From Bilabrum cf. latius (taxonomy: Eukaryota): a DNA stretch of 64,000 bases. Shown in pieces: positions 32,601 to 63,999 of the stretch. Location of the stretch: positions 248,001-312,000 of the forward strand of contig OZ237753.1 in assembly GCA_965178125.1 (NCBI GenBank), in the 5' to 3' direction. The stretch's first letter is position 1; every line of letters begins with the position of its first letter. Position numbers and translations under genes: made by a program. The notes under the pieces were generated by a model, which saw nothing but the letters and a program-made list of their open reading frames with translations, searched no databases and was not told the DNA's origin.

Positions 32601-35600
32601 GAGAACCAAGAGTCTGGTCGGGAGATCGGCCGTTTCTCGCTTGTTGACCAGGACGTGTCCGCCGGTGATGTAGTGACCATCACGATCACTCCAGGCACTG
32701 AAGGATACGATGAGGTCTCAATCCTCCATGACCCCCAGTCGCAGCAGGCTGTGGTGAGGGCCCGCGGTGTGGCCAACCTCGACTACGAAAAGAAGCCAAT
32801 CTTGAACGTGCAGTTCCGTGCCACGGATGCAGGCGGGCCCACTGGGGCCTAGACCACTCCCCAGGTGGTTACCGGTACTCTTCGTATCCTTCTGATCGAC
32901 GGCAATGATCCCCCTGTATTCCTCACGCCAAACACCACTCGTTTTATTGTTGGGGAGAACGCCGCACCAGGTACTTCGCTACAAGGCCCCTACATCCGTG
33001 CTTCCGACCCGGAGGGCAACGACTTTGAGTTTCAGGTCGTGCAGTACGACGGTGTCACGCAGCAGTACTTCGTGGAGGACGAGGCCAGATAGACCTGCGA
33101 AGACGCTGATACAGATGCTGCTCTAAGCGGTGACTCTAGCTCAGACACGAACTCCACTGAGATTGTGACTTTGTGCCGCGATGACAGGCCCAAGACAGCC
33201 TTCGCCATCGACCCTCTCCTGGGCAACCTCACCGTGCGGGACTCTTCTTCTCTGGACTACGAGACTAAAGACACTGAGATTGTTTACGTGCGAGTGCGAG
33301 ATCGCTTGTCGTCTACAATCCAAGCGTTTGACGTGCTGCTGACCGACATGGGCGACCCACCCACGATCGACTGCAACTTTGACCCCGAGATCCACAGCGG
33401 AATCCCAGAGCAAGTCACTGGACTGCAGCTGGATGCCTCACAGCAGGCAGTCATTGACCACATGATGAACTCGTCCAGTCTAACTATACCCGTCTGCGGG
33501 TACAGAGATGTGCTCGAGAACGCAGACACTGGGGATGCCATCGGCGCTGCACTTGAGGCTAGCGACCAAGATGGTGACACTGTCACCTTCGCGGTCATTC
33601 CCATCACTAACGCTTCTTCCCCGAGCTTCGGGTCTGCTTCAGGCATGATGCAGGTAGACGGTGGCACGGGCCAGCTGTCTATATCCACGTCTCGCCCTCT
33701 GGATTTTGAGACGAGCCAGCTCCTTGTGTTCGTTGTGGCTGCACGGGATACCTCCACTGGTAAGTTGTGGGGAAAGCCCACTGCCATCGCAATAAGGGTG
33801 GTTAACATTAATGAGGCGCCTGAATTCAGCGGATTGGAAACGTCCGGCGGTAACGATGGCTTCATCGTCCGCTATGTGGGCTTCAACACCCCCGCTGACC
33901 AAGACATCGGGGATCCGATTGTGGCCACTGACCCAGAAGGATAGACCGTGTCCTTCTCGAAGGATGGAGGCGACAGCGGCAACAACTTCAAGGTCGACAG
34001 CACCACCGGTCAGATCCGCAGCAACAACTTGGTAGTTGTCGGTGTCGGTTCGTCCATCGATGTCAGTATCAGGGCAACGGACTCCAGCGGCAACCGCGAA
34101 TCCCAGGCCGTACGTATCGTAGTGGTAGAGCAGAACAATGCCCCTACGGTTACAACTGGACAATCGTTCAACGTAGATGAGCACACGGCCGCAGGTTCAT
34201 CGTTTGGTACCGCAGTAGAGGCCAACGATCCTGATACTGAGCAGAGGCTGCGCTACAGCGTCACCGAAGTCAGTCCTTCTGATCCTGGAACTGGCTTATT
34301 TACGATCAATCCCGACACTGGTATCTTGCAGATCCGCTCAGACGCCAACCCCCTGTTGCTGAACTACGAAACGGGCCCAACGACATACCAGCTAACCGTT
34401 CGGGCTACCGACAATGATCCTGCAGCCAAGCTCTCGGATGAGGCCACCGTAACTGTGACGGTGGAGAACATCAACGAGCGCCCGAGGTGTGTCTTTTACA
34501 GTACGCAAAACGTGGCGTTTCGCTTGCAGCAGGAGTGGGTTCAGGAGGAGCAGGCGAAGGGCGTGGTGGTGGATCTTAACAGCTTACCATCCTACAACCA
34601 AAGCGACATGCTTACCCTGATCGACCCTGTGCCACTGTCAGAGCTTGCGCCTGAGAACCAGACGGCGGGCGTGCTTCGATGCACGGATGAAGACGGTGAC
34701 GACGTGACCATCTCACTGGCTGCCACTGGCAGCAGCGACTCAATGTTCGACCTGAGGCCGTATGGCAACTCGTCGCACAGTTTCTTCACCAGTGGTGCGG
34801 AGGTGAGGCAGGTGCTTCGGGTGCGAGACCCAAGCGGGCTTGACTTCGAAAGCCTGCCTGACTATGACACGACACTGTCCACTGCAGATCCGCGTTGGCC
34901 GACTGAGCCTGTATCCAGGGCACACAAGATCACCTTGAATGTGGAGGACGCTTCAGGCTCTGGTATCTTCGTGGTGGACCTGCCTCTGAGGGACGCCAAC
35001 GAGCGTCCCACTGTGACCGCTAGCTTGAACATCGTGCCCGAGGATGCCCCTGTCGGCACGGTGGTTGGTAGCGTGGTTGTGGTTGATCCTGACACGGGCG
35101 ACAGCCATGAGGTTGCTGCATCTGTGCCGAACTACGACCAGCTGTTCTCGTTCAACACTGAGACCTAGGAGATCGTTCTAGAGGGTGAGCTGGACTACGA
35201 GCGTGAGCAGTTCTACAGCCTGTCTGTGACCGCTACTGACTCGGGCGGTCTGATTGGCCAGACTACGGTGAGCATGGGTGTCACGAACGTCAATGACATC
35301 ACCATCGATGACGTACAGGGCGAGTTGCCGCTGAGCACGGACGGTTCATCAGCAATCGAGGTCGTCGGCACCAATCTGGGCTATTTCAACACGTCCAAGA
35401 ACCCGGACATCACTGTAACATTCGGACCTATTGGCGACGTCGAGCGGTTCCAGGCGCGTGACTGCACCGTCGCCACGGTCAACACTATGATCCGCTGCGC
35501 TTCCACCGACGAAGGCTTCGGGGCCAATTTGAGGGTGCGAGTTCAGGTGGGCGAGCACGTGAGAATCTCGGGGGCTGACGTCACGGTGAGCTTTGCGCCG

Positions 35601-38600
35601 CCTGTGCTGAGCTCGACCGTGATGACCTCAGACCTCCCTGGCAGTGGTGGAGGAACTTTCACGATCCGCGGCACGGGTTTCGGGCCGGTGGGTTCCGTCG
35701 GTCCCAACAACGCGCGCTCGGCTCTGCAGGTGGTGTACGCCCCTAGCTGGGACACGAGTGGCTACACGTACACTGGCCGCGGCTGCACGGTGACTGTGGC
35801 CCACACTGAGGCAGAGTGCACCACTGGCGAGGGCTTCGGAGCGTCAAACTGGGTGATCCTTCAAGTGGCGGATGCAAGTGTGGAGGAGAGCCGCCGCAGC
35901 ACCGATTCGCAGACACTCCGGTCAACGACCCTGGATGACGCCATCAGATTCGCTGCCCCCGTGGTGACCGACTTGCAGACCCCGTCCCAGACCGGGGGGC
36001 AGCTGAGCACGGCCGGCCGGCAGCTCATCTCGATCCAGGGCATGAATCTCGGCCGATTCAAGGCATTCGGAGATGAGACGGCCCAGTCCCAGCAGCCTGG
36101 TCTCTTCCCTGCAGCTGGGTCTGGGGACTGTCCTCGCGGGTGGTCTGCATGCTCACATGTGTACTCGCAGGGTGTGGCCAGCGCGCTAGGCTCCACTGCT
36201 GGCGTGTATCCGATCGAGTCCGATTCAATGGTACCGCGGCTATCGGCCGCTACTCCTCCTGGCACAACGGCAGATGGTGCGGTGGGTCAGCCAACCCACC
36301 CTGGAATTCTATCAGTGACCTACGGATACCTGCCGAACGGGACCACCCTCGCCGAGGCCGAGTCCATGATCTCGCAGTACAACGCCGACCGACGGTCGGG
36401 CGTGGACTCTTCTACTGCCGCAAAGATGACCGATATCTTGCCTCCCAGCCTCAGTGCCCCGCTTTCCCGGTTTAGGCCCACCTGCCTCGTCCTGGTTGCC
36501 CACACCATGCTGTAGTGTGAAACTGTGCCCGGGTACGGTGCGGGCGTAGTGTTTGTCGTGCGTGTGGGAGGCTTGATTTCATTGGTGCAGGAGGAGTCGC
36601 CGTTCACGAGCTATATCACCCCGAGTGTATCCGGCGTCAGTGGCGACGGCGCATTCAATGCTTCGACCCGCGGGTCGCAGCTGGTACTGATATCCGGTGC
36701 GCAACTGGGATCGCGCGACCTGCAGCCCGTGACCAGGGTCCGTTATGGCCCCTACGACCCGTCGAACTCGCCCGCCATGAGTCGCACGGAGGGCCTCAGC
36801 CTTGAATTCATCGCCGTGGATTGTGAGGTGGGCGCGGACCAGCAACAGATCCGATGCCTGACTGCACCTGGTGCAGGCCGCGGCCACTGGTGGCAGGTGC
36901 GAGTGGGCAACCAGTGGAGCCCCGTATTTGATGCGGCTTCTTCGTATGCCGCGCCGAGCATCATCGGGTTTGAGGGCGACGGTGCCCGTGATGCCTCCAC
37001 CCGCGGTGGGCAAGTGGTCACGGTGATGGGCGCCAACCTGGGTCCCACCACTGCTGACATCGACCGCGTGTACTACAAGGCTGTGAGCACTGTCGGGCCG
37101 GACGTGGCCCAAGGCAACGATACTGAGGGTGATGAGGGCGACGAGACTCCGTCGGAAGACCTCTCTCCCGCTGAACGACTGGCTCTGGTGGAGTTCGAAG
37201 CGGTCGGGTGCCAAATGACCAAGGCCCACGAAGAGCTCAGGTGCGTGACGGCCCCGGGTGTCGGTCGTACCCTCGAGTGGACCGTGATCGTGCGTGAGCA
37301 GAAGAACGAAGACCCTGTGACAAGCTACCACCCCCCGACGGTGCGGGCAGCAACGTCCACGGCAGGAGACCAGCAGCAGGCTGGCATGGGCTGGCTCCAA
37401 GCCGAATCGTATGCCGCCGAGGTCCGCGCTCTGGACTTGTTGCTCACGGGATGCAGCGCATCACCTGTGTCTTCAAGCAACAGTTCATCAACAACTGAGT
37501 CTAGTGAGAGCGTGGTTGCAGGGGGGTCTAATTAGCCCGCTTCGGTGCTGCGTGCCCAACTCATGAGCTCGGACGGTGGCCAGAGCGTCGTGGTTGATGG
37601 CCAGCACTTCGGTCCTGCGACCACCCCTGGTCCCTTCCTGGAGGCTGTGTACTACGGCGCGAGTGGGTCTGAGTATGCTGCCGCTGATTGCACCCTGGTG
37701 GACCACAACCAGATCACTTGCTAGACGGTCCCGGGCATCTCGCCCATGTCCGCCGATGGCGGTGCCAACTGGCGTGTGTCCATCGCTGGGCGCATTTCCT
37801 CTCCGTCGTTGCTCACCGCTGCGTACGCACCCCCCGCGGTGCGCAGCGTGCATCCCAGGCTGCTGCCCACTCGTGGTGGGCAGGTGGTGACGATCGTCTC
37901 GACCGATCTGGCCCTGTTAGACTCGGACTCTGACGTGGCATTCGCATTCTCCCTACCGTCTGGGGCTGCTGTGGAGGTGCAGCCCCTTGCGCCTGCGGCT
38001 CTGGCTGCCTACCCGACTGTGAGTGCTCCCACTTCGCAGCAGCTGGCTAACTGGGGATACCCTGGATATGGGGAGCCCGTGGCTGCCGGTGCTGGTCTTC
38101 GATATCCTTTGATCAACGAAGATGTGGCACGTCAGGCGCTGGTGGCCCAGCTCAGCAGCGCTGGGTCCACCCTGTCTTGCGACGCAGGTGCCATCGGGGC
38201 TGTGGCTACCTCGCTGCACGTGCTGTTTGCGATCTCGCCTGAGGGTGCCGGTGCCAATGTTCCAGTGTCGGCTCAGGTGACGTCAACCGCTGGATCTGGT
38301 CGTGGTGCTGCCGCACTCGGGGTGCAGTCCCTGTCCGCTTCTGCCAGCTTCGAATCACCTGCCATCCGTGCCCTCAACCCTCGGCCCGATGCTGAACTCC
38401 CTGGGTTCACGCGACTCGATATCGTGGGCAGCAACTTCTGCGGTGCGCAGCGGACTGTCGACAACCCGACCGGGTGCGGTCGACTGTATGTGTCCAGCAA
38501 TGTGGGCATCGCTGAGTCTGACTTCGGTCCCGAGCACGAGGTCACGGCGATCGTGTGGGGTCATGACGCTGTGGTGGCCCGCACGCCGCACACACAGGGC

Positions 38601-41600
38601 GCCATCATGATCGTCGCTGGCGGGCAGTCCTCCGGCAAGGTTACCTTCACCGAAATTGCGCCAGTGTTCGGCCGCAACGGCCAGCAGTCGTTCGAAGGCC
38701 AGGAGTTCAGCCCGGCTGGTGGCGACGAGATCACGGTGGAGGCGTGCAACTTGAGGGATGGAGAAACCTCTGTGCTCGTGGGTGACACGGAGGCTACCTG
38801 CGGCAGCGTCTCGGTCATCTTCACTCCTACTAATAGCAACAACTCCGCGTGTGCCCAGCCCACCCACGCCATCACGTGCACCACGCCTCCTGGTGTCGGT
38901 GCCGAAGTGCCGGTGGTGATCAAGGTCGGTGCCCTCACTTCTGAGAGCATTATCACGCCAGGCACCGGTGGAAATTCTTCCAGGCGATTGTCAGCAGAGG
39001 TGAGTGCGTCCGTTACTCACGGCAGGCAGCTGTCTGCCCGTCGTGGGCGACGTCTGGCAATTTCGTGCGCGGACAGCGGTGCTCCATGCCTCACGTACGC
39101 GGCTCCGATCGTCCAAGAGGTGCTGTTTGCCCCTGAAGATACCAGCAATCCAGGCACGTATCTCGACTACCAGCGCGTGGACCGCGTAGTCGGTGGCACT
39201 GACATGGAGCTGGTCGTGCCGACGAGGCCTGGCATGGTCCGCATCGTGGGCATGAACTTTGGTCCCCGTGGCTCCATTGAGTTGGAGCCCCCCACGTCTG
39301 GCCCTTCTTTTGCAGCCGCCGTCCTGCCGCCCAACGTTGATACTCCCACGTGGTCCAACACGATGGTGACGTTCCGCAAGCACGGTGGAGAGGGCAGGGG
39401 ATTCCAGTTCAGGCTGTTCCAGGGACAGCCCAACACTGGCGATGACGTATACGGGGTGTAGGAACCCAGCTCGCCAGGACGAATCGACTTCCACCACAAC
39501 GCACCCGTCATTGGAGTTGCAAACCCCGCTCGCGTACCGACAACAGGCGGGTCCATTGTTCTGGCAGGTGACCACTTCGGTCGCTTCTAGCCTGGTACCG
39601 CTCTGCCCAGCGTGACTGTGTCTTGGCCTGGGGCGGCCACCGCGCAAACCTGCATGGTAACAGCGCCACTCTTGACTGAGGACTCTCACAGCGTCATACG
39701 ATGCGACGTGCCCGAAGGCCAGGGTGCTGACGTGGTGGTGACTGTGACTGTGGGTGGTATTGCGACCTCGTCGGCGCCAGGGGCTGCGTTCCGGTACAAC
39801 TTCCCCTTCCCGCGCGTGCTGTCACCCCCCACTGCCTCCACAGAGGGCGGCGAGAAGATCATTCTGCTTGGTGACGACTTCGGCATCTCGGGTGCCACTG
39901 TGGTGTTCTAGCGGCGGCAGTCGCCTGGTGCTCCGTTGGAGCAGCTAATCGTACCAACAATGAACGTGTCAGCCCACAACCATTCAACTATCGTGTTTGA
40001 TGTTCCAGAGGGGCAGGGGCTCGGTTGGAGCGTCGGTGTTCGCGTGGGAGATCAGTTCTCGCTGGACGATGCTGCACAACAGACCAGCCCACTTCTATTC
40101 GACTACGCCCCGCCTCGCGTGTTTGGGGTGCGTCCTGGCTCCGGCCGCACGATCGGTGGTTACGATCTTATCATTGAGGGATCCAGCTTTGGCGTCTCTG
40201 GCGCGCGTGCGCTGGTCGGGGGGCGGTCATGCGAGCTGCTGCCTCTGGGCGGTTCCCAGGCAGCAGCTGATGCCATCGCGAGCTCCGGTGGCGGTGGATT
40301 GCCGCCTGCAGCGATCCCTGGGCACTCACACACTCGTCTGGTGTGCTCAGCCCCGGCTGGCATGTTCCCGAACCAATCCGTGGTGGTCATTGCTGCCGAT
40401 GGCAGGTCCAGCTCTGCCGGGACTGTGTTCTTCCACTACGACCCGCCGGTCACGACTGGCGTATTCCCGAACCCGCCCGACGCCGAGGGTGAGGAGATCT
40501 CGCTGCTGGGCATCAACTTTGGCGTGACTGAGACGCCCGTCAGCATCAACGTGGGCGGGCTTGAGTGCGAAGACGCCGAGTGGCAGGCCGATGACGAGCT
40601 GACCTGCTCGCTGCCGAGGCACCGCGCGGGCTACAAGAACCTGACCGTGACTGTGGCAGGCCAGACGAGTCACTTCGAAGAGCGCGACTACCGCATCCGG
40701 CTGCAGCTCATGTGCGCCAAGGACTACTATGGACAGGACGGAGAGTACTGTCTACAGTGCCCCGATGGAGCCGAGTGCCCCGGTCGCCTTAACGACCCGT
40801 ACGCAATCGAGGGTTGGTACCAGCTGACGCATCAGAACGGCTTCTACGCACCAGATGAGGCTAATCCTGAGAACGAGGTCTGGACGTGGCAGCCTAGTGG
40901 TCGTTGCCATCCCGAGAGGCGACTTACTCGCACGAACTGCTCAGAGTTCGTCGCCTGCCAGCCTGCCGAGGCTTGTCTGGGCAACAACGTGTGTGCTGAT
41001 GGGTACGAGGGTGTGCGCTGCGCCTCTTGCGCTGATGGCACTCACTATCGCATCAACGGACTCTGCGAGGAGTGCCCTGACAACCCGTGGTTGCTGTTCC
41101 TTGCCCTGATCGCTGCCGCATGCGTGGCTGGTGGCGCTGCGTACGTGCTCAACTCCAAGAACGTGAACCTTGCGTTCATCAGCGTGAGTATTCTGTATTT
41201 CTGACCTGCATGCTGCATCCCAATTACATTTTCATACCAGTGTTTCCTATTTCATGTTTCTCTCTGGTGCCCTTCTCCGCTCGCAGATTGGAATCGACTA
41301 CTTCCAGGTGCTCGCTATCTTCGCATCGGCTCGTATTGCGTGGCCGAAGCTGATCCGACAGATGTTCCAGATCATGTCCGCCTTCAACCTCAACATCGAG
41401 CTAACGGCTCCAGAGTGCGTGGTGCCGTCGCTCGCGTACCAGGGCAAGTGGTTCGCGTTCATGGTGCTGCCGCTGCTGGTGGCAACCTTTTTTGGCATTC
41501 TTCACGTAGCTAAGCTCGCTTACAAGCGTTGCGTGCTTGGTCACACGAGCAACCTGAACGGGCACCTGCCGCAACTTATTTCCGTGTTGCTAGTGTTCGG

Positions 41601-43423
41601 ATACGTGGCGTGTGAGTTATCTCTCTATGGGTTCTTGCTTCTTACTGTCCTAGTATAGTTGTGCCCGTTTCAAACTTGCTACACTATTCGTCTCAATCGC
41701 CCACTTTTCCCTTTGTTTGTTCCTTGCAGACCTGATGTTGTCTCGCTTTACGCTCGACGTGTTCAACTGCCAGCGCATCGTGGGCGAGGATGGCAGCAAC
41801 CCCGACACGGCCAGGTACATGGGTGGCCAGACCGACATCGAGTGCTACGAGACCGGTGGGACGCATCTCACCCTTCTACCTTTTGCCATCATAGCACTGG
41901 CCGTGTACATCATCGCGTTCCCTGCATTTATCGGATACCTGCTGTGGAGCAACAAGGACATGGTCAAGCGCGACCAGCTGTCCCGCGCTCGCGACGAGCC
42001 CGAGACCAGGGAGCGTCTTGGTAACGATGGGTATGAGTTCCGCAAGAAGTTCTCGCGCATGTACCAGTTCTTCAAACCTGGCAAGTGGTACTGGATACTG
42101 GTGCTTTTCGCCCGCAAGTTCGCGCTGGCGCTGACTAGCCTCATGTTCGCCACGGTCCCGTCCTACCAGCTGGCCATGAGTCTGCTCGTGCTGTTCATCG
42201 GGTACACGCTGCAGACCAAGCACGAGCCCTACATGTCGCCCAGCGACCACAAGCTGGTGCTGGAGGAGCATGCCATGAAGGCACGCTACTCTGACGTGCA
42301 TGCAAAGATCGAGGCCCAGCACCGAAGCCAGATGCGCCGTAACCACGTTCGTTCTGCGCCGGCGGGCGGAAACGGCTGGTCCGCTGCATAGGCCCAGAAG
42401 CAGGCCAGTACCATGATTTCCTCTGCCAGTCTGTACTTCCTGTCGTACAATGGCCTGGAGAGCACGCTGCTGTTCTGCGCCGTGCTGCTGTGCCTGTCTG
42501 GCCTCATGTTCGAGAGCGACCGTTTCGCTTCATCGGGTCAGAACTCCGTGGAGCGTGATACGCTCACGTACCTTGCGCTGCTGATCATCTTCAGCTCGAT
42601 CGTCTACTGGCTTTCGGTAGTGTTCATTGAGATCTTCATCGTATTCCAGCCCGAAGCGGCCGCCAGCTGCTTCGGCGAGACGGAGGAGCAAAAGAAGCGC
42701 CGGGAGGAGAAGACCATGGCTGGTGTGAAGCAGGGCAAGACCGCTCGCAAAGCAGGCGTCACCAAGGATGGGGACTTCCAGATGGGTGCGGGTACTGCTG
42801 CTGGATTTGCACCCGAGTCAGGCAGAGACGGCGACGCTGATGCCCAGACCCAGTTCCACAACAACCCGCTCATGGCAAAGATGAGCATGCGAAGCGTCAA
42901 TGTGCCTGACCTGGATCCCAGCACTACCCGAAGCGTCGGGGGCTTGACACTCACTGACATTGTGCGCGGAGACAAACCACCTGCCCCTGAGCAGTGGGCC
43001 AGTGTGTAGAGCCTCGTGCAGGGCATTTTGAACGACAATGACGCCCTGCGCGCCGACCGTCTTGAAGCTGCCTTGACAGAGGAGCAGGCCAAGGTGCTAA
43101 GTGAAGGACGGGTCAAGGGGTCAAAGGGAGCCAGGCGAAAGTCTGGGATGACGTTCGCCCCGCAACGCACCAACATCGGTGCTGAAGGTGCTGCAGCCGT
43201 TGGAAGCGGCAGCGGGGCAAAGATGACAAACCCCCTTGCAGCTGCCCGTGGTAGTACAGCAGGGTCCACCACCTCCTCGACGTTCGGGCGAGCGCAAGGC
43301 CTGCGAGGGCTGCGGAAGGACCAGAAGTCGTCGATGGCTGCACGCAGAGCAGCAGCCAGTGCTGCGGCTAAGGTTGGGGCTGCGAAGTCAGCTCCCACAA
43401 CGCCAACTGGCGTTGAGCAGTGA
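17651..43423 (+). CDS. Giant cell-surface protein (~8,360 aa): signal peptide, Ig-like, fibrinogen-like, multiple LamG/pentraxin, Calx-beta, discoidin-like, Cys-rich repeat, ILEI-like, ~10 cadherin, IPT/TIG repeats, Cys-rich region, ~8-9 TM module, cytoplasmic tail
   Basis: ATG 17651 with signal-like MWHHVTAAVCLVAILSAHRASA. The frame is continuous through about 30 TAG and 7 GT-AG introns (spliced length 25,089 nt, divisible by 3); ends TGA TAA. LamG W.HV....LY.NG/F.G.ID motifs; cadherin PE, A.D.D, LDFE and D.N..P motifs; IPT C.T.PG.G motifs. Confidence 0.85.
26405..26510 (+). other. intron (106 nt), gene 3
   Basis: GTAAGC...CTCGCAG; accounts for the frame change between ORFs 25910 and 26460. 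Confidence 0.8.
27400..27485 (+). other. intron (86 nt), gene 3
   Basis: GTAAGT...TCTCGCAG, phase 1, AT-rich. Confidence 0.75.
27598..27690 (+). other. intron (93 nt), gene 3
   Basis: GTGAGT...ACCGCAG, phase 2; joins EASN|CGNLRTW. Confidence 0.75.
29050..29140 (+). other. intron (91 nt), gene 3
   Basis: GTGAGT...ACCGCAG; explains the apparent TGA stop at 29051. Confidence 0.8.
29392..29478 (+). other. intron (87 nt), gene 3
   Basis: GTGAGA...TTTGCAG, T-rich, contains an in-frame TGA. Confidence 0.75.
31643..35300 (+). repeat. about 10 tandem cadherin repeats (protein level)
   Basis: Linkers ANRPP, DANRPP, DVNEPP, NANDAP, DGNDPP, DMGDPP, NINEAP, EQNNAP, NINERP, DANERP, NVND, plus A.D.D and LD(F/Y)E motifs. 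Confidence 0.85.
35300..40680 (+). repeat. tandem IPT/TIG-like repeats (protein level)
   Basis: Recurrent ST.GG...I.G.N(F/L)G...C.V....I.C.T.PG.G...V.VG.Q...Y.PP units. Confidence 0.75.
41184..41286 (+). other. intron (103 nt), gene 3
   Basis: GTGAGT...CTCGCAG; joins AFIS|IGIDYFQV. Confidence 0.85.
41612..41729 (+). other. intron (118 nt), gene 3
   Basis: GTGAGT...CCTTGCAG; joins FGYVAY|LMLSRFTLDVFNC. Confidence 0.8.
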
Positions 43424-43884
43424 TAAGTTATACCGTTATGTGTATTGTGTTGCCTTTGTGTTGCAAATGAACGCTTTGCCGCATGTCGCACTAGAACCTC
43501 TGGCAGGATTCCTGGAGCAACACGCTGCTTACTGCAGTTCAGCATCGTAATTCGCGGTTCGACTCCGATCGCTGCATGTGTGGTGTGGCTGGCCCTTGAC
43601 TACTAGTTGATGGCCGGTCCTGCAGAACACAGCGGCATCGGTGCGCGTCGAGCCGCGCACGTTGCGTGCTCACAAGGCTACGGCAATACTATGAACTTGG
43701 TATCTTGATTGTTTATGTTTTGAAAGTTGTTATTCGATTAATTGATCAATACAACGATTAGTGAATGGAACACACTAAGTAGGATTGCTAGGCTTGCGAG
43801 GGGTACAGCAGGGTCCACTACCGCAACGTACATCTTCCGGCCCGCAACATCACTCCCCCTGCCCCCGCGTGCTGCCTGCGAATT

Positions 43885-46800
43885 TCAGTTGCCCTACCCG
43901 TCTTCACTCCTTGCATCAACATCCTGGTCCTGATCTGCTTCAGTATCATCAGAATAGTCGTCGGCACGCATGGCCTGCGGGTCAGCGTACCCAGCCTAGT
44001 CTCCGTTCGTCCAAGATGCATGGGAGGCAACCGGACTACGAGGCGCAAATTGTCCAAAATCCGGGGCCACAGCCCCTGCATGACTACCAGCGCCACTGAA
44101 AGCACCACGTGGGTCGGGCATGCTCACGTTGCCGTAATATTGAGGATGTTGTGCCGCCGTTCCGGCCTCTTCAGTGCCTCGCTTGATCGACCCCAAAATA
44201 ATTTGACCCAAGGAGCGCGCGAAGCTCTGAAGCTATTTCTCAGCATCCTCAGAGACACTGCGTATCAGGCTGCGGACGCCGTCAAGCTTTCGGCCAGCCT
44301 CTGCGGCCGCAGCTGCCTGCCGGAAAGGCTCGGCTTGTGAAGCCACACTCACTTCCCTTTGCTCCTGATGCGCCTACCGCTCTCGTAGGCTACCAAGCAT
44401 GCTGTCTCCAAGACATTCGATGAGATCTAGATCTTCTCTGTGAAGCCTTTGGCCCCATCGCTTCTGTGAAATGCCCTGAAGAGCTTCAACGGCCAAATGA
44501 CACAGGTTCGAGCTGGCGAAAATCACTACCCACGCCCGCGCTACCACACTTGTACTTTTCCACAGCCGGGCAATCGAATTCAAGCAGCAGGCCACGGTCT
44601 GCACGTCGGAATCAGACGGCCTACCGCCACTTGAACTCAAGCCAGCCGTCGCTGCGCGCAAATGGCCTACCAACTGCACATCCAAGTTCTTCGGCATGAC
44701 GGGCTTTCTTGCCGGTACCTCCTAACCCTAGCCCTTACCCTTGGCATACTAGACCGGTATTGGTGCCGGAGCGTAGCCTGGGCTGAGCCAGCGAAGCAGA
44801 CGATCCTGAGAAGCGCAGACCAGCGCCTTGCGATCTACGGCATGGATGCCCAGGTCCAGGTCGCCAGGTTTAGCGGACGGAGAGACGGCGGAAGCATCTG
44901 CAATAGCTTTGGCCGACGATCCGCCCGCCGAGTATTCGCTGGAAGCGACAAAGGAAGTACCAGGAGCCAGCGCGCTGACCGCAAACTATGACCGGACCGC
45001 TGCAGCTGCCGCTCCTTGCTTGCGCAACGCGACCGTAGCTTGGCGATCAGCAACGGACTTGGCTCCCGACACAGCGCTACTCTGCGGTTTCTGGGCCATG
45101 GCGGCTCTCAGAAGTGCAGGGTAGTCAATGGAAGGCTCCCTAGAATCAACAGCGCGCAGACCATTGCCACTATGGTTTGCTGCAAGCTTAAATCTCAGCG
45201 TAGCTTCCTATGGCAGGTCATCAGCGAGCTGCAAGAGCGGCCTTCGCTGACCATCCGAGCTTTGGTCGAATCCGAAAGCCTTGGCGAGTCGAAGTGCAGC
45301 GAACCCGTCTGGCTGCGCCGCAAATACTGCGCTGTAATCCAAAACAAATTGCCGGTCTTTGTTGCAACCGCCCTTCATTGCATTGAGTGCCCTGGCGATT
45401 CGTACCGAGGTGGCAGGGCGGGCCCAGGTGGTCGCCGATGTCAGCATCAGGAAGTCACGCGGGGAACAGAGCGGTCCTGTGTCTGGCAAACCTGACGTAG
45501 CAAGCAATGGACTCTGAACTACACAGAGCGCAAGCAATGGCGAGTGCATAGCCTGGCGACGGTCTTCAAATGGACGCAATGGGCACGGAGCTGGGCCAGA
45601 CTTGTTGGCTCCGCGAGCCAAGAAACCTACCAACTGCACATGCAGCTATTGAAGCTTTTCAGTAGTTTTACGGTTGCCGGCTAACTGCAAGGAAATCTTC
45701 GACAGTTCCCCGTACGCGCGCTCCGCAGCTTCGAGGTGCGCCAGGTATTTGACTTGCGCCATCAGCTTCGTACACGGACCTTTTTCTGTGGCACCCAGCG
45801 CACGTAAGATATCCTGGCCAACCTCTGTGGCCGATCTTTGGCTTGAACCAGACCTGTTGATGATTTTGAGAATGACCTGAGCTGGTCCGTTACCGACTTG
45901 CTACTCTGCCGCTCCAAAGCTTTGACAGAGCAAGCAGTAGACGGCATCTTCGAAGGCACTCTGAAGAGCCGATAGGATCTCCTTCTTCGTCTCCAGCATC
46001 CACGGCGCAACAACCCTCCGCGCCTTCACGGCGCGGCCGTTGGAAGAAATGCGTCGGGAAGCTCGTTGTTGGGAGGCAACGCTGGCAAATCCACAGAACG
46101 CAGCAAGCGAAGGCGCCACGCGCTCTACAGGAGAATCTGCAGATGAATACGTTTCTCCAGAGCATTCGATTCCTGCAGACCTTAGTAGGCGAACTGCTTC
46201 GGCTGCAATTCCACCTGCCGCAACTTTGTTAAGGCTCGAAGCCTCAGATTCGAGCAGTGCGGGGTCATGGGTATCAAGCCACCACTGATCTAGTCCAACA
46301 GCCGGAGGTTCTGGTGCCTAGCGGCTCGCTGCTGCGCCTGATGCAGCACTAGAACTAGCTGCAAGATTCCGCTCGCTGGGATCATTCTCGGGCTCTACAT
46401 CTTCGATGGTCGCATCATCAGAACCTGATTCTGGTGAGTCACTCAGCGATCCACTGGGTTCGTCAGCAACAGCTTGAACTCCCGGAGCTTCCTGGGGAGC
46501 TTCAGATTCGCCGTCGTTCGATTGGACGCCTGGTCTCAGAGTGCTCGATTTGGCACCGATAGCACTTTCAGGCAGTGACGCTGGCCCAATGCCGACGGAG
46601 CCCGGCATGCGCCCTGAAAGCAGTCCGACATGTAGCAGCGTCGTAAGCGGTTCATATGGCAGTTCAACGAGGGTGTTGTTGTGGTACCATGCATTCTGAT
46701 CGAACAACACCTGAGGCAGCAGCCCTAGGAAAGGAGTGTCTGGTGCCTGCTGAGGAAAACCGTTCCAGTCGTGCGTAAAAAATGCAGATCCTCCCTTGTA

Positions 46801-49800
46801 AGCGTCAAACTCTAGGAGAGCATGCAGCGCGACCAGAGGCATGTCAGCTGCAGTTGCAATCCTCCGCCATACTGGACCGCATCGGTAAGCCATGGTAGCA
46901 ATATCGGGTAAGTTCTTGAATACGCTGGGAGAAGTGACAGTCTGCCGCACCATCAGTACTGTTGAGGACACGTGCAGGCAAACACCTCTTGCAGCAACCA
47001 TCGCGCGCCCTGTCGTGCTAACTTCAGATGTTGCCATGCTCCCATCAGCCAATGTGTGGAGTAGTCCTCTTGCATGCGCAAGCCTTGCGGGATTAGCACT
47101 TGCTGGAAACTGACCATCTGCTATCATTCCTTTGGCCTCGTTGGTGAATTGGTTGAACAGCAAGTCACTGTCCGACATGCAGTCCTCTGGTAGCAACTCA
47201 GGTACCCCGTCGTCCGTGGGAAGGAGGCTGGACGCTGCGGCACCACAGGATCGCCCCGCTATCTAGTCGAGGAGAACACACGCAATAAACGGGCCTTTAC
47301 GCTTGTAATACAGAGCAGAGGCTTGGTCAAACCGGATAGATGTCTAGGAGCTAATCTGGTGGGCGCTTAACCCAATGAGAAGACTCGCCAAGGGAGACGC
47401 AGTAGTGCAGGCATTCAGAAGGGAACTGGCTCTGAATGGAGGGCTTGGGATACCCGTTCGGCCGGCAGCTGCGCCATCTGTCTACTTCGTAAGATATTTC
47501 GGGATCTGCTTCCAGTATGACTCTAATGCCGCGCCCAAGCTATCCTCGCCACGACACAACAGCGATTTAGAGTCATCTGCTCTCGAAATGTTGACTACGA
47601 CTACTTGTGCATCTGAGTCGCTGTCCGAAAAATCGATGCCCCCAGCACTTGCGCCTGCAGCCTATTCTGCAATGTCATCATCATCGCCATCCTGAGGTGG
47701 TTCATTACGCTCAATGAATTGCTTGCCAGCAGCCTCGCACCTGCGAAGCTCCTTGGCGTTGAAATCCTCAAAGAGTTTCAAGATGCTCGACTCGGTCACA
47801 GACTGAAAAAATCTGCAGCTCAAGATCTCGGCACATTCCTCGAATGGCACACCAATCTGCCGCAAAACCGAGCAAGCCGCAAACAGCCACTACTTACCCG
47901 ATCTAGGCATCCCAACTCGGTTGTAGTCCACGAGATGTAGCGAGGACATCGTGGACCCACGCAGGATCTGAGCACAGAAGTGCGCGTGGGCAACTTGCAG
48001 CAGCCCGCTTAGGCGACGGTCTAGCTGGATGACATCTGACGCACCATGTTCGATTTGCTGTACGGCCTATGACATGACTAGCGAGGCAACTCGGAGCAAT
48101 GACGGGAACTCAAGGTTTGTAATGACGTGCGTCCTATGCAGCTGTGCGGTTGCGCGGGCGACAGCAGCGGCGACATCGGTTGGTGCCATCGGCAAGACAG
48201 CCTACAGCACAGTGGAACCGGTGTCCTGAGAGGCTGACACAGATCCAGATGATGCTGCCCTGCGCACCTGTGGGGCAGATGTTGACTTTCTGCGGCGTTT
48301 GGAAGGCGGCGACAATGATGACTCCTGGGCCTCGGCTGAGCCCAATGGATCTGCGGGTGACTCCGCGGGCTCTTCCGCAGCGCTCCCAGCCTAAGCACTG
48401 ACGGATTGCAGGTAAGCTGCCGCTTCATCCCTGTCCATCCGATCATAAAGCAGCATCAAAGCGCTGCCGAGCCTGGGTAGCACCTTATTTCCGCTATAGT
48501 ACGTGCCTCCCTTGGAATCTTCCTGCACAACATCCCAACTCACCTCCTCGACCTTGTCATCGTCAAACCTGATCCACCTTCCGGCCTCGCCGTGTGTCCC
48601 TTCTGGAAACACAACGGAAGAGCCCAGCGGGAGCCTCTACCGTCTTGCAGCGGCATCCTCGGGTCGTTCACGAACGTAGCTGTAGTAGTGTCCGGAATTG
48701 GCAGTGCCTTTGTGAATGACGATACCGTGCAGTCGGAACACGCAGTCCAGGCGATCAAGCTTGGCAGCTTCCTAAGCGAACTCATCTAGCTCCACGTCCG
48801 CACCCTTGCCACGGAGGGCACTGGTCTTGCGCTCCTCCTCGAGCGTTCCAGAAAGCGTGTACGGCCACATGTCAAGCACCTCTGGAAAGGATACGGCGTC
48901 GTACTTCTTGTACCTCTAAAATGTCTCGTAGTTCAAACCGAACCGGTTCATGTGCAGGCAGAGCACACGGGGTAGCTTTGCAAACGTCTGGCGGCGTTCT
49001 GAGTCGACCTTCTTGCCTGCATACTTGTCACACGCGTAGGCATTGTCATCGACTAGCTGGTCAGGTTCGATGGACTTCACGAGAGCCTGCTCTACAGACG
49101 TCACGTTGTCGATGGTCAGTGAAACGGCAAAAAACTGCTCACCGCGCGACTTGTAGTGGGGATACTCAGGATCGATCCCCTTGATCTCCACGCAGTGCTA
49201 ACCCTCCATGATGCCGGATAGTAGGTTCTTGCCGGTGTGAACCGGACCGCTTGCAGCGGCTCCAGCCCCTGACGCGGGACCACGGATCTTCTCATTGACG
49301 CGCAAAGGCCGGTCCAACATTCGATCTTGGGACGCGTGTGTTGCAGCGCCGCTACCTTGGACCAGATCGGCCAGGCAAGTGACCTCATCGGGAAACGCCT
49401 CCCCGAGCCTGTCAGCAAGCCTCACAAGCAGCTCGTTTGCGTCATTTTGATCCTGAATGGGATGGTCCAGGAAGAACCACCCGCGGGGAACGTCTCGACA
49501 AGATTGAGCGAACGAATGAGAATCAAGAGCAGAAAGCGGTGCAGAGCATAGCATGGCTTGTAATTTCTAATACTCCCATCGCAGCCGCATCAGTTGAGCA
49601 GGAAACTTGTGTCGCTATAATACCGCCTGCGGAAGAGGCGCCGCTCGCATAGAACCATGGCGAATGATGGGAATCATAAACAGCTGCTGCAGCACGCTTA
49701 ACAAGTAGCAGTGCATTCCTGGATTAATCAAGCCAGCATACTCCGCCGTGCCGCGCCCATGCACACAACTCGGCGGAATGTCGATGGTAGGCTGGCCAAC

Positions 49801-52800
49801 GATCGACCGGACAACCGCAGGATGTGGGTGCTCCAGAGCCAGGAATCTACCGTGCCGTGCACCAGCTGCACGTCTCTCTGATGCTTCCAAAGGGGCAATA
49901 ATCGCCTTAACGTTGACCTCATAAAGCTGGCTTGCGATTTTCCTGATTTGCTCCGTGTCGACTGACGGACTTGCAGCAGCCGCTGCGACGCCCAAACCGC
50001 TCGTGTCTAAGATGTCATTTCCTGCCTTTGCAGCGGAAGACGACGACGACGATGATGATGATGATGATGATGATGAGCTTGCCTACAAAGAAGGGCCAGA
50101 CCCAGCACTTGCGGAGGCCTGGATGGAAACGGATGCTGCGGCAGACTGAAGCTCATTCGTTCGGACCGCAGATTGATGTGCTTGCGTTACGCACTCCTGC
50201 CAACATGTCTTCAGCTGCTGCCGCACTGTGTCAACTTCTCTGCAGCGCGCATATCGCCTGTCGGGCCGAACAAGGTTGTAGTCATTCTGTTTGAGCTGGT
50301 TTGCAGTGGCGTACTGCCTCTGTTGTTCCAAGGCGACAAGAGCAGACAAGGGCAGCGCTCTGCTAAGGTTGGACACAGAGCTGTACGGTAGGCTTGTTGA
50401 CGCCAGTACCCCCCCTGGACTCAACCCGGCATCAGAGGCTACTCCTTCGGCTGACAGTTCCAAAGCAAGCGCGTGATTGGGTCGGCGCAACAGCTACTGG
50501 ATCGATACACCGGCCACATCAGCAGATGTCTGCACGGACTCAAAGTGTTCCGCAAGAACTGCTCGCACTACATTGATCCGGGCAGAAAATCCGACACTAT
50601 CGTCACCGATTGGCTAAAGGATACCAGGGATTAAGTCCAACCACGACGAGTCGGGCGCAAAATCCTGCACCTCATCCAGGGCGTCCTGCAGAAATGTGGA
50701 GATTGCGATTGCAGCGTTCAATCGGAGACGCCATGGCAGCTGATCCAATGCCAAGAGCTTCGTTGACAAGCTCAAACACTTCATGAGGGTTTCACCGGCA
50801 AGCTGCCCCGCACTGTGCACGCGCATGGCATTGGTACCAACGATGCACTTGCGAACCAGCACATCAAACAGCTGCTCAACATGCTCGGGCGACGCTTCGA
50901 CGATAGTGGCAGGCAACACCTTTTCCATCAGGTCCAGTACTCTCAGAACTAGCTCGGCAATGGCAGTAGGGAGAGTGACAGAGGCGATGACTGTCGTTTG
51001 GCCAGATTCTTGGCCTCCCATGAATGCCTCTGGCGTAGCCTCAGGCAGGTGGAGCCCCATCTGATTGGACCACGCAGTGCGCATGGCTCGCGCAGCCGCA
51101 GCGGTGCTTTCGTCAACAATACCGATGATCGATGGGGCGTCATTGAATGGAATAGAGAATGCGTTCTGCTATGATCTCGAAGATGGTGGGTCCGCGGAAG
51201 CAGTCGGGTCGTCGGCGGGGGCACTTGCCTGTTCGCACACTGAATCATCACCATTAGTACCGACAACGTCTAGCTCGGAAAGGCTTGCAACAAGCTCAAA
51301 AGTGGCTGACAGGAAGTCAAGACAAGTCTTGGCATATACCCTTGCGCTTTCAGGGTCAGCACGACCTGCGCCTTGTATGATCAATGAAACAAAGCTGGAG
51401 CTCAGCACGGGCAGATCGCCAAGAGACAAAATGCGAGCGTGTCGAGCCTTCTACAGGAGCTGGCGCGATGTCGCGGCAAACTTGCCGACGTATCTTGCAA
51501 AAATACCAGAAGATGACTTGAAGATGCTCTGCAACGATTCGGGGCTCGAGTTCCCGAGCCGCATTAGAACATCCGGAAGGACCTTTGGTGCGACCGCGAG
51601 TTCGGGTGCCAGGCCAGACAGACCTTCTTGATTGGCTCCAGAGTGGACTGCCTGGGCAGCAGTGACCGTGCTACCACAAATACGGCATGCATCTTCGACC
51701 TCGTCGCTGGAGAAAGTGCTGGTGACTGACGAAGCCGGCAAGAACTTGGTCTACAGCTGCGTTAGATGCAACACCACCTAGCTCGCCGAATTTGCGATCG
51801 CATCCTCGAGGCAGCACAGCCTCTGTGCGTCCTACTGCTACATGAGAGATAGCACAGTAGACTCTTCGCATGTGGATTGTTTCGCCCGCAAGCGCTTTGC
51901 ACCTGGCCTTGCTTTCTCCTCAGACCCATCACTGGCTACTCCATTCGGGTTGGTTCCTCGTGCCACTGCTAAGAGTGCTTTCCATGCCGTTTTAGTCAAG
52001 CGTCTTACTCTTTCATCGCCCAAAATGGCAAAAATAGCAGCTTTGTGCACGTCCGCATTCCAGCAGATGGGCTCCTCCGGCTCAGCCGAATCGAGTTTTT
52101 GGGTCGAGTCCTGACCAGCACCGCTGCTCGCATCTCTAGTCGAACGGACTTCAACATCTTCCTTTTCAGCTCCCTCCTTCGATGGCTTTGAATCACAAAG
52201 GCCACGAATTACTTCAAGGATGGCAGTGGGCAAGCCTTCGGACTTTGTGAGGCCCCCATACAGCAACGCACAGGGATCGTCGGCTTCACCGGGCGAAATC
52301 AGCAGGGAGTCAATCTCGCCGTTGCTCAGCCCGCTGGCCGCATCCACGCTGTTCACACAAATGAATCGAAGCAAGCAAGACAGGGCCGCTTGAATGTTGG
52401 ACAGATGCGACGCTAGCTGCCTTGATCCAAATCTCATCTCGCCTATTTGCGAATCAATCGACGTCTGGATCTTATCCAACGTTCCATTTCCTACAAGCTT
52501 GCACCGCAACATTAACGGAGTGACTCTCCCGAATGCGCCATGTGTTTCAACATGGCTATGTGCTAGGAACGAAGACAACTGATTTAGCAGCAACGTGAGC
52601 TTGAAGTTTGATCGTGCTGGAAGTGACAACACCAAAGCTTTCCCGCGGTGCCTAGCCAAGTCGTGCATCAGCTCATGCACCTTGCTAGCTATGGCTACAC
52701 CGTCTTTTGATTCGCCCACTGACCCATCGTCCTCCATTTTGGCACTTGCAGAAGACGCAGCGCTACTGCTACTGCTGCTGGATGCAGACACTGCTTCGCT

Positions 52801-55800
52801 AGGGGAAGATAGCGGAGGCATGGCGTTGCCGCCCCGCCTGCGCCTGCCCGGTGTTGTTGAGGTGGGAGCCAGAAAGTTCTCTTCTGTCATGGCAGCGAAC
52901 GTTTGGATGGAATCACTAGGTGGCAACAGTCCAAGGTGGGAATCAAGCGCGTGGCTGGCAGCTGCAAATGATGTCAAACCTGACACGCGCCCAAGCGCCA
53001 CCGCGACGCCATCAAGCCCGTCAGCGTACTCCCTTAGCAATCCACAGTGACCCATGCGGCAGAAGTACGGGTGAGAAAGCGGGTCTGGTCCGCCCTCTAT
53101 GTTGGTACCCTCCTCATCTGCAGCGTCACAATCATCCATCGCCACAGAGGATGCAAGCTTGTCAGCTTCACCAGACTCAGACTTGGAGTCCAAGGAATGG
53201 GTCTCTTCGAAGCAGATTGGGCGACATTCGAAAAACTAGCTACCAAAGCCTTGCAGGTACGCCAGGCCTTCAATCATTTTCCTATGGGGATTGCTAGCTT
53301 CGTCTGAGGCACTTACATCGGACTGCGCTAAAGTGCAACATAGCTCGTGCATGTCCTTGCTTAGACTTAGGAGACCAACCGGTACAGGCACTTTCCCCAT
53401 AGGAGCCTTTCCTTTGACTGTACTGGCACGGGTTGGCTGCTTGCCGTCCCACTCCACGCTAAAGATGGCCCATGGAGATGCTTGCTGCTGCATAAGGCCG
53501 AGCTCAATGGAAGAGAAAGTGGGATTGTGCTGGAGTGAGCTGTGCCCAAGCATGCCACCAGCAATGCGAAGAGCATGCGAGGTGGACTCGCACTGCAGCT
53601 ACTGAAAGCCAGCCAAAAGAGGCTACAGATCTGTACTGAAGCACAGTTTGTCGTATTCATCGTGCCACAGCTGCACCATTCTCGGCTGAACGACGTATCC
53701 CATGTGTAAATTGCTCGTCACTCCCTCTTGAACAAGCAAGTTCCGCGGCCTAACACGCATAAGAAGCTTGCCCGAGCGATGCATCCCGGCGGTAGCCGTG
53801 CTTGAAACGGCGCAGCCCATGATTGCATCCCCCCATTGAGAGCCCGGCGTCGAGTTCAGCAGCAAGGGGCACAAAACTTGGCCAATAGTTTGATCATCAA
53901 GCTCGATATCCTCCCCTTTATGAAACTTGCGGACTTGCTCGGCACGACGCTTACACAGCTCTGACAGATAATCTAAGTCGTTCTCAACAGCCTTCACAAG
54001 CTTCTTGATCCAAACAACCGCAACCAGAAGGTCGTTGCCAGGTTCACTCTACATTGCGTGTTGCAGGGTCGTGTCATACCGAATGGGCGTGCCGCTTAAG
54101 AAGGTTAACTATTTCTGGCCCTACTTCTAAGGAACGTCTCGCGGATCGCTCGTGTACACGTGCACTGAAGGACTCGTCCCAGACATCTCCAACGACCGTG
54201 AATCGTCGTTTAGCTGTACAGAGACAATCGGCGGCAGGGCGTACTTCCTGCAGATAGCCGAGCAAACGTCCCCCACGGTGGTCTCTGGTCCGACCCCAGG
54301 CATCATAAAAGTGCCATCAGGCTACTCATGGAAGAATTTGCAAATTGCGTCTAGTCTCTTGGCTCGCTGTCTGATCAAGGCGACAGCAGTCTTGGCAGAT
54401 GCGGCCAGGACCAGACCACACATCTTCTCCACTTTCTCCAATGCCGCAATGCTGGCCTCGACATCCTGAAACGGCTTCTCCGGGCATCCGGCCACGAACT
54501 TGTGGCGGCCGACCAGTGTCGCTGGTACCAAAGAAAAAAATACATTTCGCAAATTGCTGCTCGCACCAGAACCCAGAGTTGACATGCCCGTCGCGATAGA
54601 CCTCCGAAGAGGCACAGGACAAGAGCCACGAATGGATGCGATTGCAAACGAAGTTCTTGACTGTGGCTGCAGCCTGCTGGAAAGCAGCTGCCTGGTCTTT
54701 TCTGCAAATTCTCCTTCGTTCGCTTTGGTCATGGATAAGGTGGTTTGTAAAGCACGCCGATCCTGGTCTCCAATACCGATCAAGCCCCTGGAGGCATTCA
54801 AATAGCTGCCACCGCCTGCAAGCGAGGCAATTAAGCGGTCCCCGGAGCAAAACATTGGCGACTTGTTGTAACTTCGATTGAGGCAGCGGAAAGCATCGCG
54901 GCGCGATAGTGCAATTTGAATGCCATCACTGGTGTCTGACGAGCCGTATAGCGTGTCTCCAAGCCAGCAATCGCGGGAGAGCTCCTGATCCAGCACCTAA
55001 TAATTCCTACCTGAAGCCTAGCGCCACTTCAAGCTAGACCCGTTCCATGACGTGACGCATGCGTCTTCGCCTTGGTTGAGCACCTCGCAAGCCCCGTGCT
55101 CATCGATCTCTTGCAGGCCAGCTAGTCGTGTCTGCAGCAGTAGCACTCGCAATAGGGTGAGAAGACGATGCAAAGACTCCTCCGCGCAGAAGGCCTACTA
55201 GGCCATTGTAGCCCTGCCGGCCGAAACTAAAACCCTCTCGGCATTCTCTCGAACTCGCCCTGCCGAAGATGCCTCGGAACTATCGGCCGAAGATGAGGAC
55301 TAGCCTACCTCATCGCATGTCTCCAAGAAAGCCGTGAGAGCTTGTCTGGGAACTCGAACGCTCGCAGACCCACAGCCCATCGACGGTGAGGAGGATCGGC
55401 AGCTCTGCAATAGACTATCGTGAACTTGGCCAGTCGGGACAGTGACGGGTCCGAAAATCGAGGGCTCAAATCCGCCCCCTACATGCTGAACGTGGGCTGC
55501 TACACTTTGAGGCGCATCATCACCGCCAGCTGATGCGGCTGCAGCTGCAACCAGGGCCGAATGCATATCAATTGGACCAGATCGCACACCATCCAGACTG
55601 TCTGTGCAATCATTGATAAGAGCAACGCAGATACGGATGAGGGCTCGCCTGGTGGCCGTCACGATTGGGCCATCGGAAGCCAGCCTCGGGAGCAAAGACA
55701 AAAAAGAAACGCAATCATCAGCGACGGCTCGACTTTGCGCTGTCAACAGGCACTACAAATGGAGACCAGTACCGGCAAGATCCAGCGGGCTGTACACCGG

Positions 55801-63800: not shown

Positions 63801-63999
63801 CCTGCATCGCACGCCACCAACCGGCTTCTGCAGCCATGCTGGCACTCTCCCTCGATTGGCTGCAGGGTGTTGACTCCGCAGGAGTGTCCTGCCTTACCTT
63901 GCCCAAAGCACGCAGAGCTCTGGTTGCAGCCGACAGAAGCTCGCGCGCCTCATCTGCAACGGATTGCCCTGCATCGCCTATGCTAGTAGCACCATGACC
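60811..63999 (-). CDS. ATM: PIKK kinase, ATM/Tel1-like (end of FAT, kinase, FATC); 5' part lies outside the window; 10 in-frame TAG
   Basis: KGPNEDMRQD, GLGDRHGGN, VHIDFGICFEQAK, PEWVPFRLTRE, MGVRGVEGTFR; FATC VERQVDALIKQAQDPRRLCTMYDGWQMWC then TGA at 60811-60813. PIKK membership is firm; the ATM subfamily call is less so. Confidence 0.75.

Follow-up and report, generated by a model that had tools for sequence, protein, structure and literature searches.

In this study we find that the nuclear genetic code of this organism, apparently a bicosoecid stramenopile, is very probably one in which UAG encodes glutamine while UAA and UGA are both stop codons (NCBI translation table 15). The analysis was built around a window of 64,000 nucleotides (G000:C19:248001-312000) in a eukaryotic assembly of 48.6 Mb and 111 contigs, about 1 Mb of which was read directly. 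A preliminary description of the window had proposed that UAG is decoupled from UAA, and our results bear this out, as TAG was found only inside genes and TAA only at their ends.

The five genes of the window (Table 1), of which genes 1 and 5 extend past its edges and have only their 3' parts inside, were modelled with 11 GT-AG introns of 86-164 nt, the exons being deduced from GT-AG sites and reading frame and not from RNA. The frames are backed by Pfam domains (WD40, AAA and SLOG; TmcB; laminin-G, cadherin and TIG; UCH; PI3K and FATC). These spliced models contain 124 TAG, 197 CAA and 608 CAG but no TAA and no TGA in 20,385 sense codons, in agreement with the earlier observation that exonic TAA is lacking although CAA is freely used. 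If TAA were a glutamine codon, about 40 would be expected in the window at the CAA/CAG ratio and about 24 by the harsher TTA/TTG ratio, so that their complete absence lies well outside chance under UAR = Gln (Poisson P ~4e-18 and ~3e-11, respectively). None of the 415 TAA triplets in the window was embedded in coding-like sequence by the both-flank test described below. All five TGA terminators listed in the preliminary description, at 10055, 16897 (TGA TGA), 43421 (TGA TAA), 43885 and 60811, were located as claimed, and the FATC domain of gene 5 stops at its TGA just where human ATM ends. That five genes should all end in TGA is not surprising, since this has a probability of 0.43 at the sampled rate of 44/52. 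A TAA closing the frame 41188-42024 was considered as a gene end and rejected, because gene 3 exits that frame at an intron. As for the proteins themselves, the product of gene 1 has a SLOG domain of the TRPM type at its C-terminus, joined to WD40 repeats and an AAA ATPase, and that of gene 3 is a surface protein whose repeats are of the laminin-G, cadherin and TIG kinds and whose tail crosses the membrane several times.

Table 1. Coordinates of the genes, stop codons and decoding components discussed in the text (window positions unless a contig is named).
Feature	Position	Strand	Details
Gene 1 (3' part), AAA/WD40/SLOG protein	2..10057	+	8 TAG, 0 TAA; stop TGA 10055-10057
Gene 2, TmcB-like, 2,116 aa, 3 exons	10292..16899	+	14 TAG, 0 TAA; stop TGA TGA 16897-16902
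Gene 3, laminin-G/cadherin/TIG membrane protein, 8,362 aa, 8 exons	17651..43423	+	31 TAG, 0 TAA
In-frame TAG (read as Gln), gene 3 last exon	42389..42391	+	
In-frame TAG (read as Gln), gene 3 last exon	43007..43009	+	
Gene 3 tandem stop TGA TAA	43421..43426	+	TGA is the terminator; in-frame TAA is 3' UTR
Gene 4, ubiquitin C-terminal hydrolase, 5,494 aa, 3 exons	43885..60575	-	61 TAG, 0 TAA; stop TGA 43885-43887
Gene 5 (3' part), ATM-like PI3K-family kinase	60811..63999	-	10 TAG, 0 TAA; stop TGA 60811-60813
tRNA(CUA) gene	G000:C23:907607-907679	-	Rfam 69.8 bits, full cloverleaf
eRF1 gene	G000:C35 (L001:1068-2941)		four exons; ends TAA

Conservation in protein alignments argues that UAG encodes glutamine. 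When the dyneins were compared with 120 homologues, the residues opposite 44 TAG codons were Q (0.27), E (0.11) and K (0.08), compared with Q 0.30 for CAG and Q 0.33 for CAA, and this profile is unlike those of GAG, AAG, TAC, TTG and TGG, with TAC giving Y 0.59. Among the 16 dynein columns at least 70% conserved opposite TAG, Q leads in nine and another residue in seven, a spread similar to that of CAA; TAG also fills columns in which Q is present in 109-120 of about 120 homologues, and in the Cafeteria dynein orthologue Q faces 8 of 12 TAGs. Q is likewise the top residue (0.28) for 35 TAG codons of the Rabs, eight TAGs of Rab/Ras-family GTPases occupy the near-invariant, catalytic switch-II Gln, and one TAG of eRF1 falls at a position where 89 of 95 homologues have Q. 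Of all Gln codons, TAG makes up about 13-16% in the sampled long genes and 5% in the dyneins, and PRP8 has three TAGs. Two side observations concern where TAG is used. The switch-II Gln is TAG in 8 of 19 Ras-family genes (L056-L085) against a background of about 13.5%, a pattern spotted post hoc (P = 0.002), and in 33 long frames from seven sampled blocks the TAG share of Gln codons was 25% after a preceding A, 21% after C, 14% after T and 11% after G.

Whether UAA is ever a sense codon was examined on a wider scale. Pfam domains were sought in all six frames across the genome, which gave 228 matches, comprising 65 Ras, 148 kinases (116 scored among 413 candidates) and 15 chaperonins, the Ras tally being checked computationally and the kinases and chaperonins counted by hand. 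Within these matches, spread over many contigs, there were 140 TAG, three TAA and five TGA. Each of the eight TAA and TGA cases was read, and all are at match edges, inside or bordering an intron; a few of the TAGs at match edges may also be intronic. The Dynein_C domain gave 13 TAG and neither TAA nor TGA in 25 matches, and six dynein frames had 45 TAG and no TAA in 19,395 codons, where 4.3 TAA were expected (P = 0.014), a test that is weak by itself because codons ending in A are avoided (the dynein CAA/CAG ratio is about 0.1). In the both-flank test, every triplet in 364 kb was scored for coding-like, stop-free sequence on both sides without presupposing a frame. This test is a strict one that picks up only a minority of the genuine internal codons, and it was trained on sequence lacking TAA; it accepted 68/5,632 TAG and 101/11,200 CAA, and 0/2,515 TAA and 0/9,932 TGA (TAA versus TAG, P = 1e-11). 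In an unselected sample of 394 kb, table 1 left 5 frames of at least 1,000 codons, compared with 40 for table 15 and 44 for table 6. Exonic TAA was found neither in the window genes and dynein frames nor in the Pfam matches and the both-flank test, and a search for internal TAA at Gln columns, the observation that would speak against the preliminary reading, revealed none in exons. Two long repetitive stretches in G000:C6:400001-450000 (L156-L160) have several simultaneously open frames, and one of the stretches is very rich in Gln; they are likely tandem repeats and were excluded from the curated counts.

The codons that end genes were determined in a sample of 52 mapped ends, consisting of 20 Ras-family, nine chaperonin and 16 dynein heavy chain genes, eRF1, PRP8 and the five window genes. 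Forty-four of these end in TGA, eight in TAA and none in TAG, which gives TAA a share of 15% (Wilson 95% interval 8-28%) and TAG, for this sample rather than the whole genome, an upper 95% bound of 7%; 47 ends (39 TGA, 8 TAA) are pinned by homology or motif. Excluded from the tally were eight Ras-family genes that have no prenylation motif (all TGA), L119, which enters an intron and is represented by its last exon L130, and dynein L229, which has no C-terminal match. Among the 28 Ras-family loci read, a cysteine prenylation motif adjoins the stop in 20, the stop being TGA in 16 and TAA in four (CVVS-TAA, CGC-TAA, CC-TAA and CMIL-TAA). All nine chaperonin genes end in TGA; the dynein heavy chains have 13 TGA and three TAA ends, and two dynein paralogues share an identical last four residues followed by TAA in one and TGA in the other. 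The stop of eRF1 is at the same end as in its orthologues. Thirty-three long frames of the unselected sample, with 29 TGA and four TAA ends, agree with this tally. The preliminary description had taken UAA for a rare stop or one nearly unused; as UAA ends 8 of the 52 mapped genes, "rare" stands and "nearly unused" does not. Selenocysteine genes aside, UGA terminates translation and has no sense meaning, with 44 terminal TGAs and with the TGAs inside Pfam matches all intronic, and its dominance probably follows from the GC-rich genome. Within 100 codons of the stop, TAG accounts for 25 of 167 Gln codons, compared with 516 of 3,234 at greater distance (P = 0.83), and this lack of depletion argues against a dual meaning of UAG.

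Several other explanations have to be weighed against these data. One is that UAA and UAG were reassigned together to Gln, as in table 6, and that TAA is scarce merely through third-position GC bias. It draws on the disfavour for A-ending codons, which weakens the dynein test, and on the fact that the five window genes all end in TGA. However, we consider it very unlikely, as the window has no TAA against about 40 expected, the TAA ends of eight genes coincide exactly with the C-terminus that homology or a prenylation motif indicates, reading through TAA barely adds frames of at least 1,000 codons (from 40 to 44 in 394 kb), and no UUA tRNA is present in the 48 Rfam or 39 nuclear pattern matches described below. 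It is hardly credible that UAG stands for another residue or a mixture of residues, such as Tyr through a Tyr-derived tRNA, or Glu or Lys. The acceptor stem of the tRNA(CUA) is indeed Tyr-like, with C1:G72, and E ranks second in the TAG profile, but E holds the same rank for CAG and CAA, Y is not among the top residues facing TAG whereas it is prominent for TAC, and the tRNA(CUA) carries G73 and not the A73 of Tyr. Such a reading is also at odds with TAG at columns where nearly all homologues have Q and at the catalytic Gln of Ras proteins.

The remaining alternative is a dual UAG, read as Gln within genes and as a stop at some ends, with eRF1 competing with the tRNA. The retention of all core eRF1 motifs, the finding of a single tRNA(CUA) gene and the scarcer use of TAG, as for a slow or risky codon, in PRP8 (three TAG) and in the dyneins, where its share of Gln codons is 5%, would all fit this view. 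Yet we think it improbable, because TAG is found at none of the 52 ends and is undepleted ahead of stops, and because genes with up to 61 TAG, as well as eRF1 with its own TAG, would be hard to complete under real competition. Nor do the data resemble a context-dependent code of the Condylostoma or Blastocrithidia type, given that TAG is internal only, TAA is terminal only and TAG shows no depletion.

The code that we favour, with UAG as Gln and UAA and UGA as stops, would require a dedicated tRNA with anticodon CUA, to which GlnRS attaches Gln and which decodes UAG but not UAA, together with an eRF1 whose recognition of a third-position G is lost or weakened. A CUA anticodon is described as decoding UAG and not UAA (PMC5304391). 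The preliminary description had predicted a CUA-only suppressor tRNA, and one nuclear tRNA(CUA) gene is present (Table 1), with no tRNA(UUA) found. The Rfam tRNA search, in which 63 of 780 candidates were scored, gave 48 matches, the nuclear tRNAs among them including one CUA, one Gln UUG and two Gln CUG. A pattern for the UUA anticodon loop had 40 matches versus 72 for its reversed control; ARAGORN identified none of the 39 nuclear matches as a UUA tRNA, and the 40th is a mitochondrial tRNA-Lys. The search for tRNA(UUA) that had been recommended at the outset has thus been run and yielded none in either set, an absence that is not absolute because only 63 of the 780 Rfam candidates were scored. 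Over 73 nt, the tRNA(CUA) is identical to tRNA-Gln(UUG) at 50 positions, to tRNA-Tyr(GUA) at 50 and to tRNA-Gln(CUG) at 48, and by the last of these values the idea of a recent copy of tRNA-Gln(CUG) was rejected. Its D-arm and G73 are like those of Gln(UUG), and its acceptor stem and C1:G72 pair are like those of Tyr, without the Tyr determinant A73; C1:G72 is described as an identity element of eukaryotic tRNA-Tyr and A73 as a Tyr determinant (PMC9976931). GlnRS-family loci were located in the assembly, and we infer from the proteins that the tRNA(CUA) is charged with Gln.

The eRF1 gene carries two in-frame TAGs within its stop-recognition domain, so synthesis of the release factor depends on UAG being read as sense. 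A spliced contig from run X2, a run whose kind was guessed as RNA, spans all four exons with no letter differing, so that neither these TAGs nor the terminal TAA can be put down to introns or to mistakes in the assembly. Both runs used, X1 and X2, are guessed to be RNA; the best-matching runs may be the assembly's own source, and their contigs cannot show transcript ends. In human numbering, aligned by motif to published numbers, the protein retains GTS, E55, NIKS, R65, S70, K109 and YxCxxxF, and its differences include G29A, N30D, I35V, S60V, L69Q, E107Q, N129S and K130H, the Q at position 69 being encoded by TAG. Published work connects L69 and N129 with the reading of a third-position G and describes N30A as having no effect in yeast (PMC4381064). 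L69Q is present in 6 of 95 eRF1 homologues and N129S in eRF1 genes whose own stop codon is TAG; as both changes occur in other eRF1s, no single one is diagnostic. The combination of N129S and L69Q was considered as a signature of the code and rejected after a metagenome search. Of 60 matches, 59 were eRF1/aRF1 genes. In-frame TAG was not convincing in any of the eukaryotic ones, TAG is the stop codon of three, and TAVNIKS is found in one, so the signature fails. In the sister group of this eRF1 (L252, L268), a small sample, recognisable coding frames contain no TAG. The branch leading to our eRF1 and an 88% metagenomic relative is long (0.46), which would fit an altered function, and this eRF1 may plausibly discriminate against UAG.

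The best named matches are to Cafeteria roenbergensis, with 69% for eRF1 and 66% for dynein. In a dynein tree of 24 rows, the gene is sister to Cafeteria plus one further sequence (SH-aLRT 100, quick method), and in an eRF1 tree of 53 rows, a subset of 120 matches, it groups with Cafeteria with support of 98/85. These two gene trees, which are not phylogenomics, suggest that the organism is a bicosoecid stramenopile beside Cafeteria; the recoded genes sit on large contigs, and their lineage placement is consistent. For cox1, none of the 120 matches listed is from a named close relative, and the nearest sequences among them match at 94% and 89%. The code change would have arisen on this lineage after its split from Cafeteria, as far as two gene trees and thin sister-group data can indicate. 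An eRF1 labelled Symbiodinium sp. KB8 (P0010) sits within the Cafeteria-related clade, which suggests a bicosoecid contaminant in that public assembly. The mitochondrial contig (G000:C111, L034-L037) is 38.4 kb long with about 24% GC, and in it UGA is Trp with a tRNA(UCA), and all 21 closed frames of at least 150 codons end in TAA. The assembly also contains two differing 18S genes, one at G000:C95:6099-7900 (L052) and one in a tandem array on G000:C12 (L053), with 1,411 identities in 1,691 aligned columns. The array is probably that of the host, and the gene on C95, a contig of 17.9 kb, looks like that of another eukaryote in the sample, possibly a dinoflagellate-like one.

Codes that split UAG from UAA are rare, and how eRF1 distinguishes the two codons is an open question in the field. 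Table 15 is already known; the apparently novel points are the lineage that uses it, the predominance of UGA among the stops and the fact that a single assembly contains both the tRNA gene and the release-factor gene. With candidate tRNA(CUA), eRF1 and GlnRS-family genes in hand on long contigs, and with the well-studied Cafeteria for contrast, the mechanism becomes directly testable. Among the papers listed for the literature searched, which covers few subscription journals, none was found to report a nuclear codon reassignment for any stramenopile, and none is mentioned in passages of PMC11412368, PMC13768787, PMC8345874 and PMC10553269; if no earlier report exists, nuclear code variation would extend to stramenopiles. 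Annotation of this genome needs table 15, as table 1 keeps only 5 of 40 long frames and table 6 overruns about 15% of gene ends. We speculate, with considerable doubt, that this is the first nuclear code change in stramenopiles and that it followed a different route to the UAG/UAA split, in which an eRF1 with intact GTS would reject UAG through other changes in its N domain, an old Tyr-stemmed tRNA(CUA) would carry Gln, and the lineage may represent a halfway stage from the standard code to UAR = Gln. With UGA ending about 85% of the mapped genes, UAA would be nearly dispensable and such a halfway stage conceivable, unlike in the UAA-rich ciliate cases.

The same code is described in Iotanema spirale of the Fornicata (Panek et al. 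2017, PMC5304391), where UAG is also Gln, UAA and UGA are stops and no UAG ends are reported. The two lineages are unrelated, and stop usage clearly differs, with 104 UAA and 15 UGA (104/119 UAA) in Iotanema compared with 8 UAA and 44 UGA here. The eRF1 of Iotanema has T32G in the GTS motif (PMC5304391), a change described as missing from its standard-code relatives (PMC9161772), whereas GTS is intact in our organism, and its tRNA(CUA) was described as predicted only, whereas the gene was found here. Table 15 is also described for the phyllopharyngean ciliates Hartmannula sinica and Trochilia petrani, likewise with no UAG depletion near gene ends (McGowan et al. 2024, PMC11687900), and Protocruzia tuzeti is cited there for the same code. 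In contrast to the 15% found here, UAA is stated to end 86.9-98.3% of genes in five recoded ciliate genomes, and the same account gives no suppressor tRNA as detected in Hartmannula and Trochilia, unlike our genome with its tRNA(CUA) gene (PMC11687900). The UAG/UAA split is thus shown in a GC-rich, UGA-dominated genome, unlike the published cases with counts. Reassignment of UAG alone, with UAA kept as a stop, is shared with the rhizarian exLh and TARA phyllopharyngean MAGs, in which UAG is described as Leu and tRNA(CUA) genes are noted in two MAGs, and with Scotinosphaera, in which UAG is cited as Ser (PMC11687900), the amino acid being different from ours. In exLh, UAA is given for 56 of 71 stops and eRF1 has L69A, compared with a TAG-encoded Q at this position here. 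Organisms with table 6, such as Tetrahymena, hexamitins and some ulvophytes, resemble ours in having UAG as Gln, a tRNA-Gln(CUA) and UGA as the main stop, but UAA there is a sense codon that needs a tRNA(UUA), whereas here it is a stop. The nearest named relative, Cafeteria roenbergensis/burkhardae, is the sister in both gene trees and shares mitochondrial UGA as Trp, a feature reported for Cafeteria and Cafileria; passages of the Cafeteria genome paper mention a non-standard code for the mitochondrion only, and the Cafeteria eRF1 has the usual GNGTS, TASNIKS and L69, in contrast to the L69Q of the present organism.
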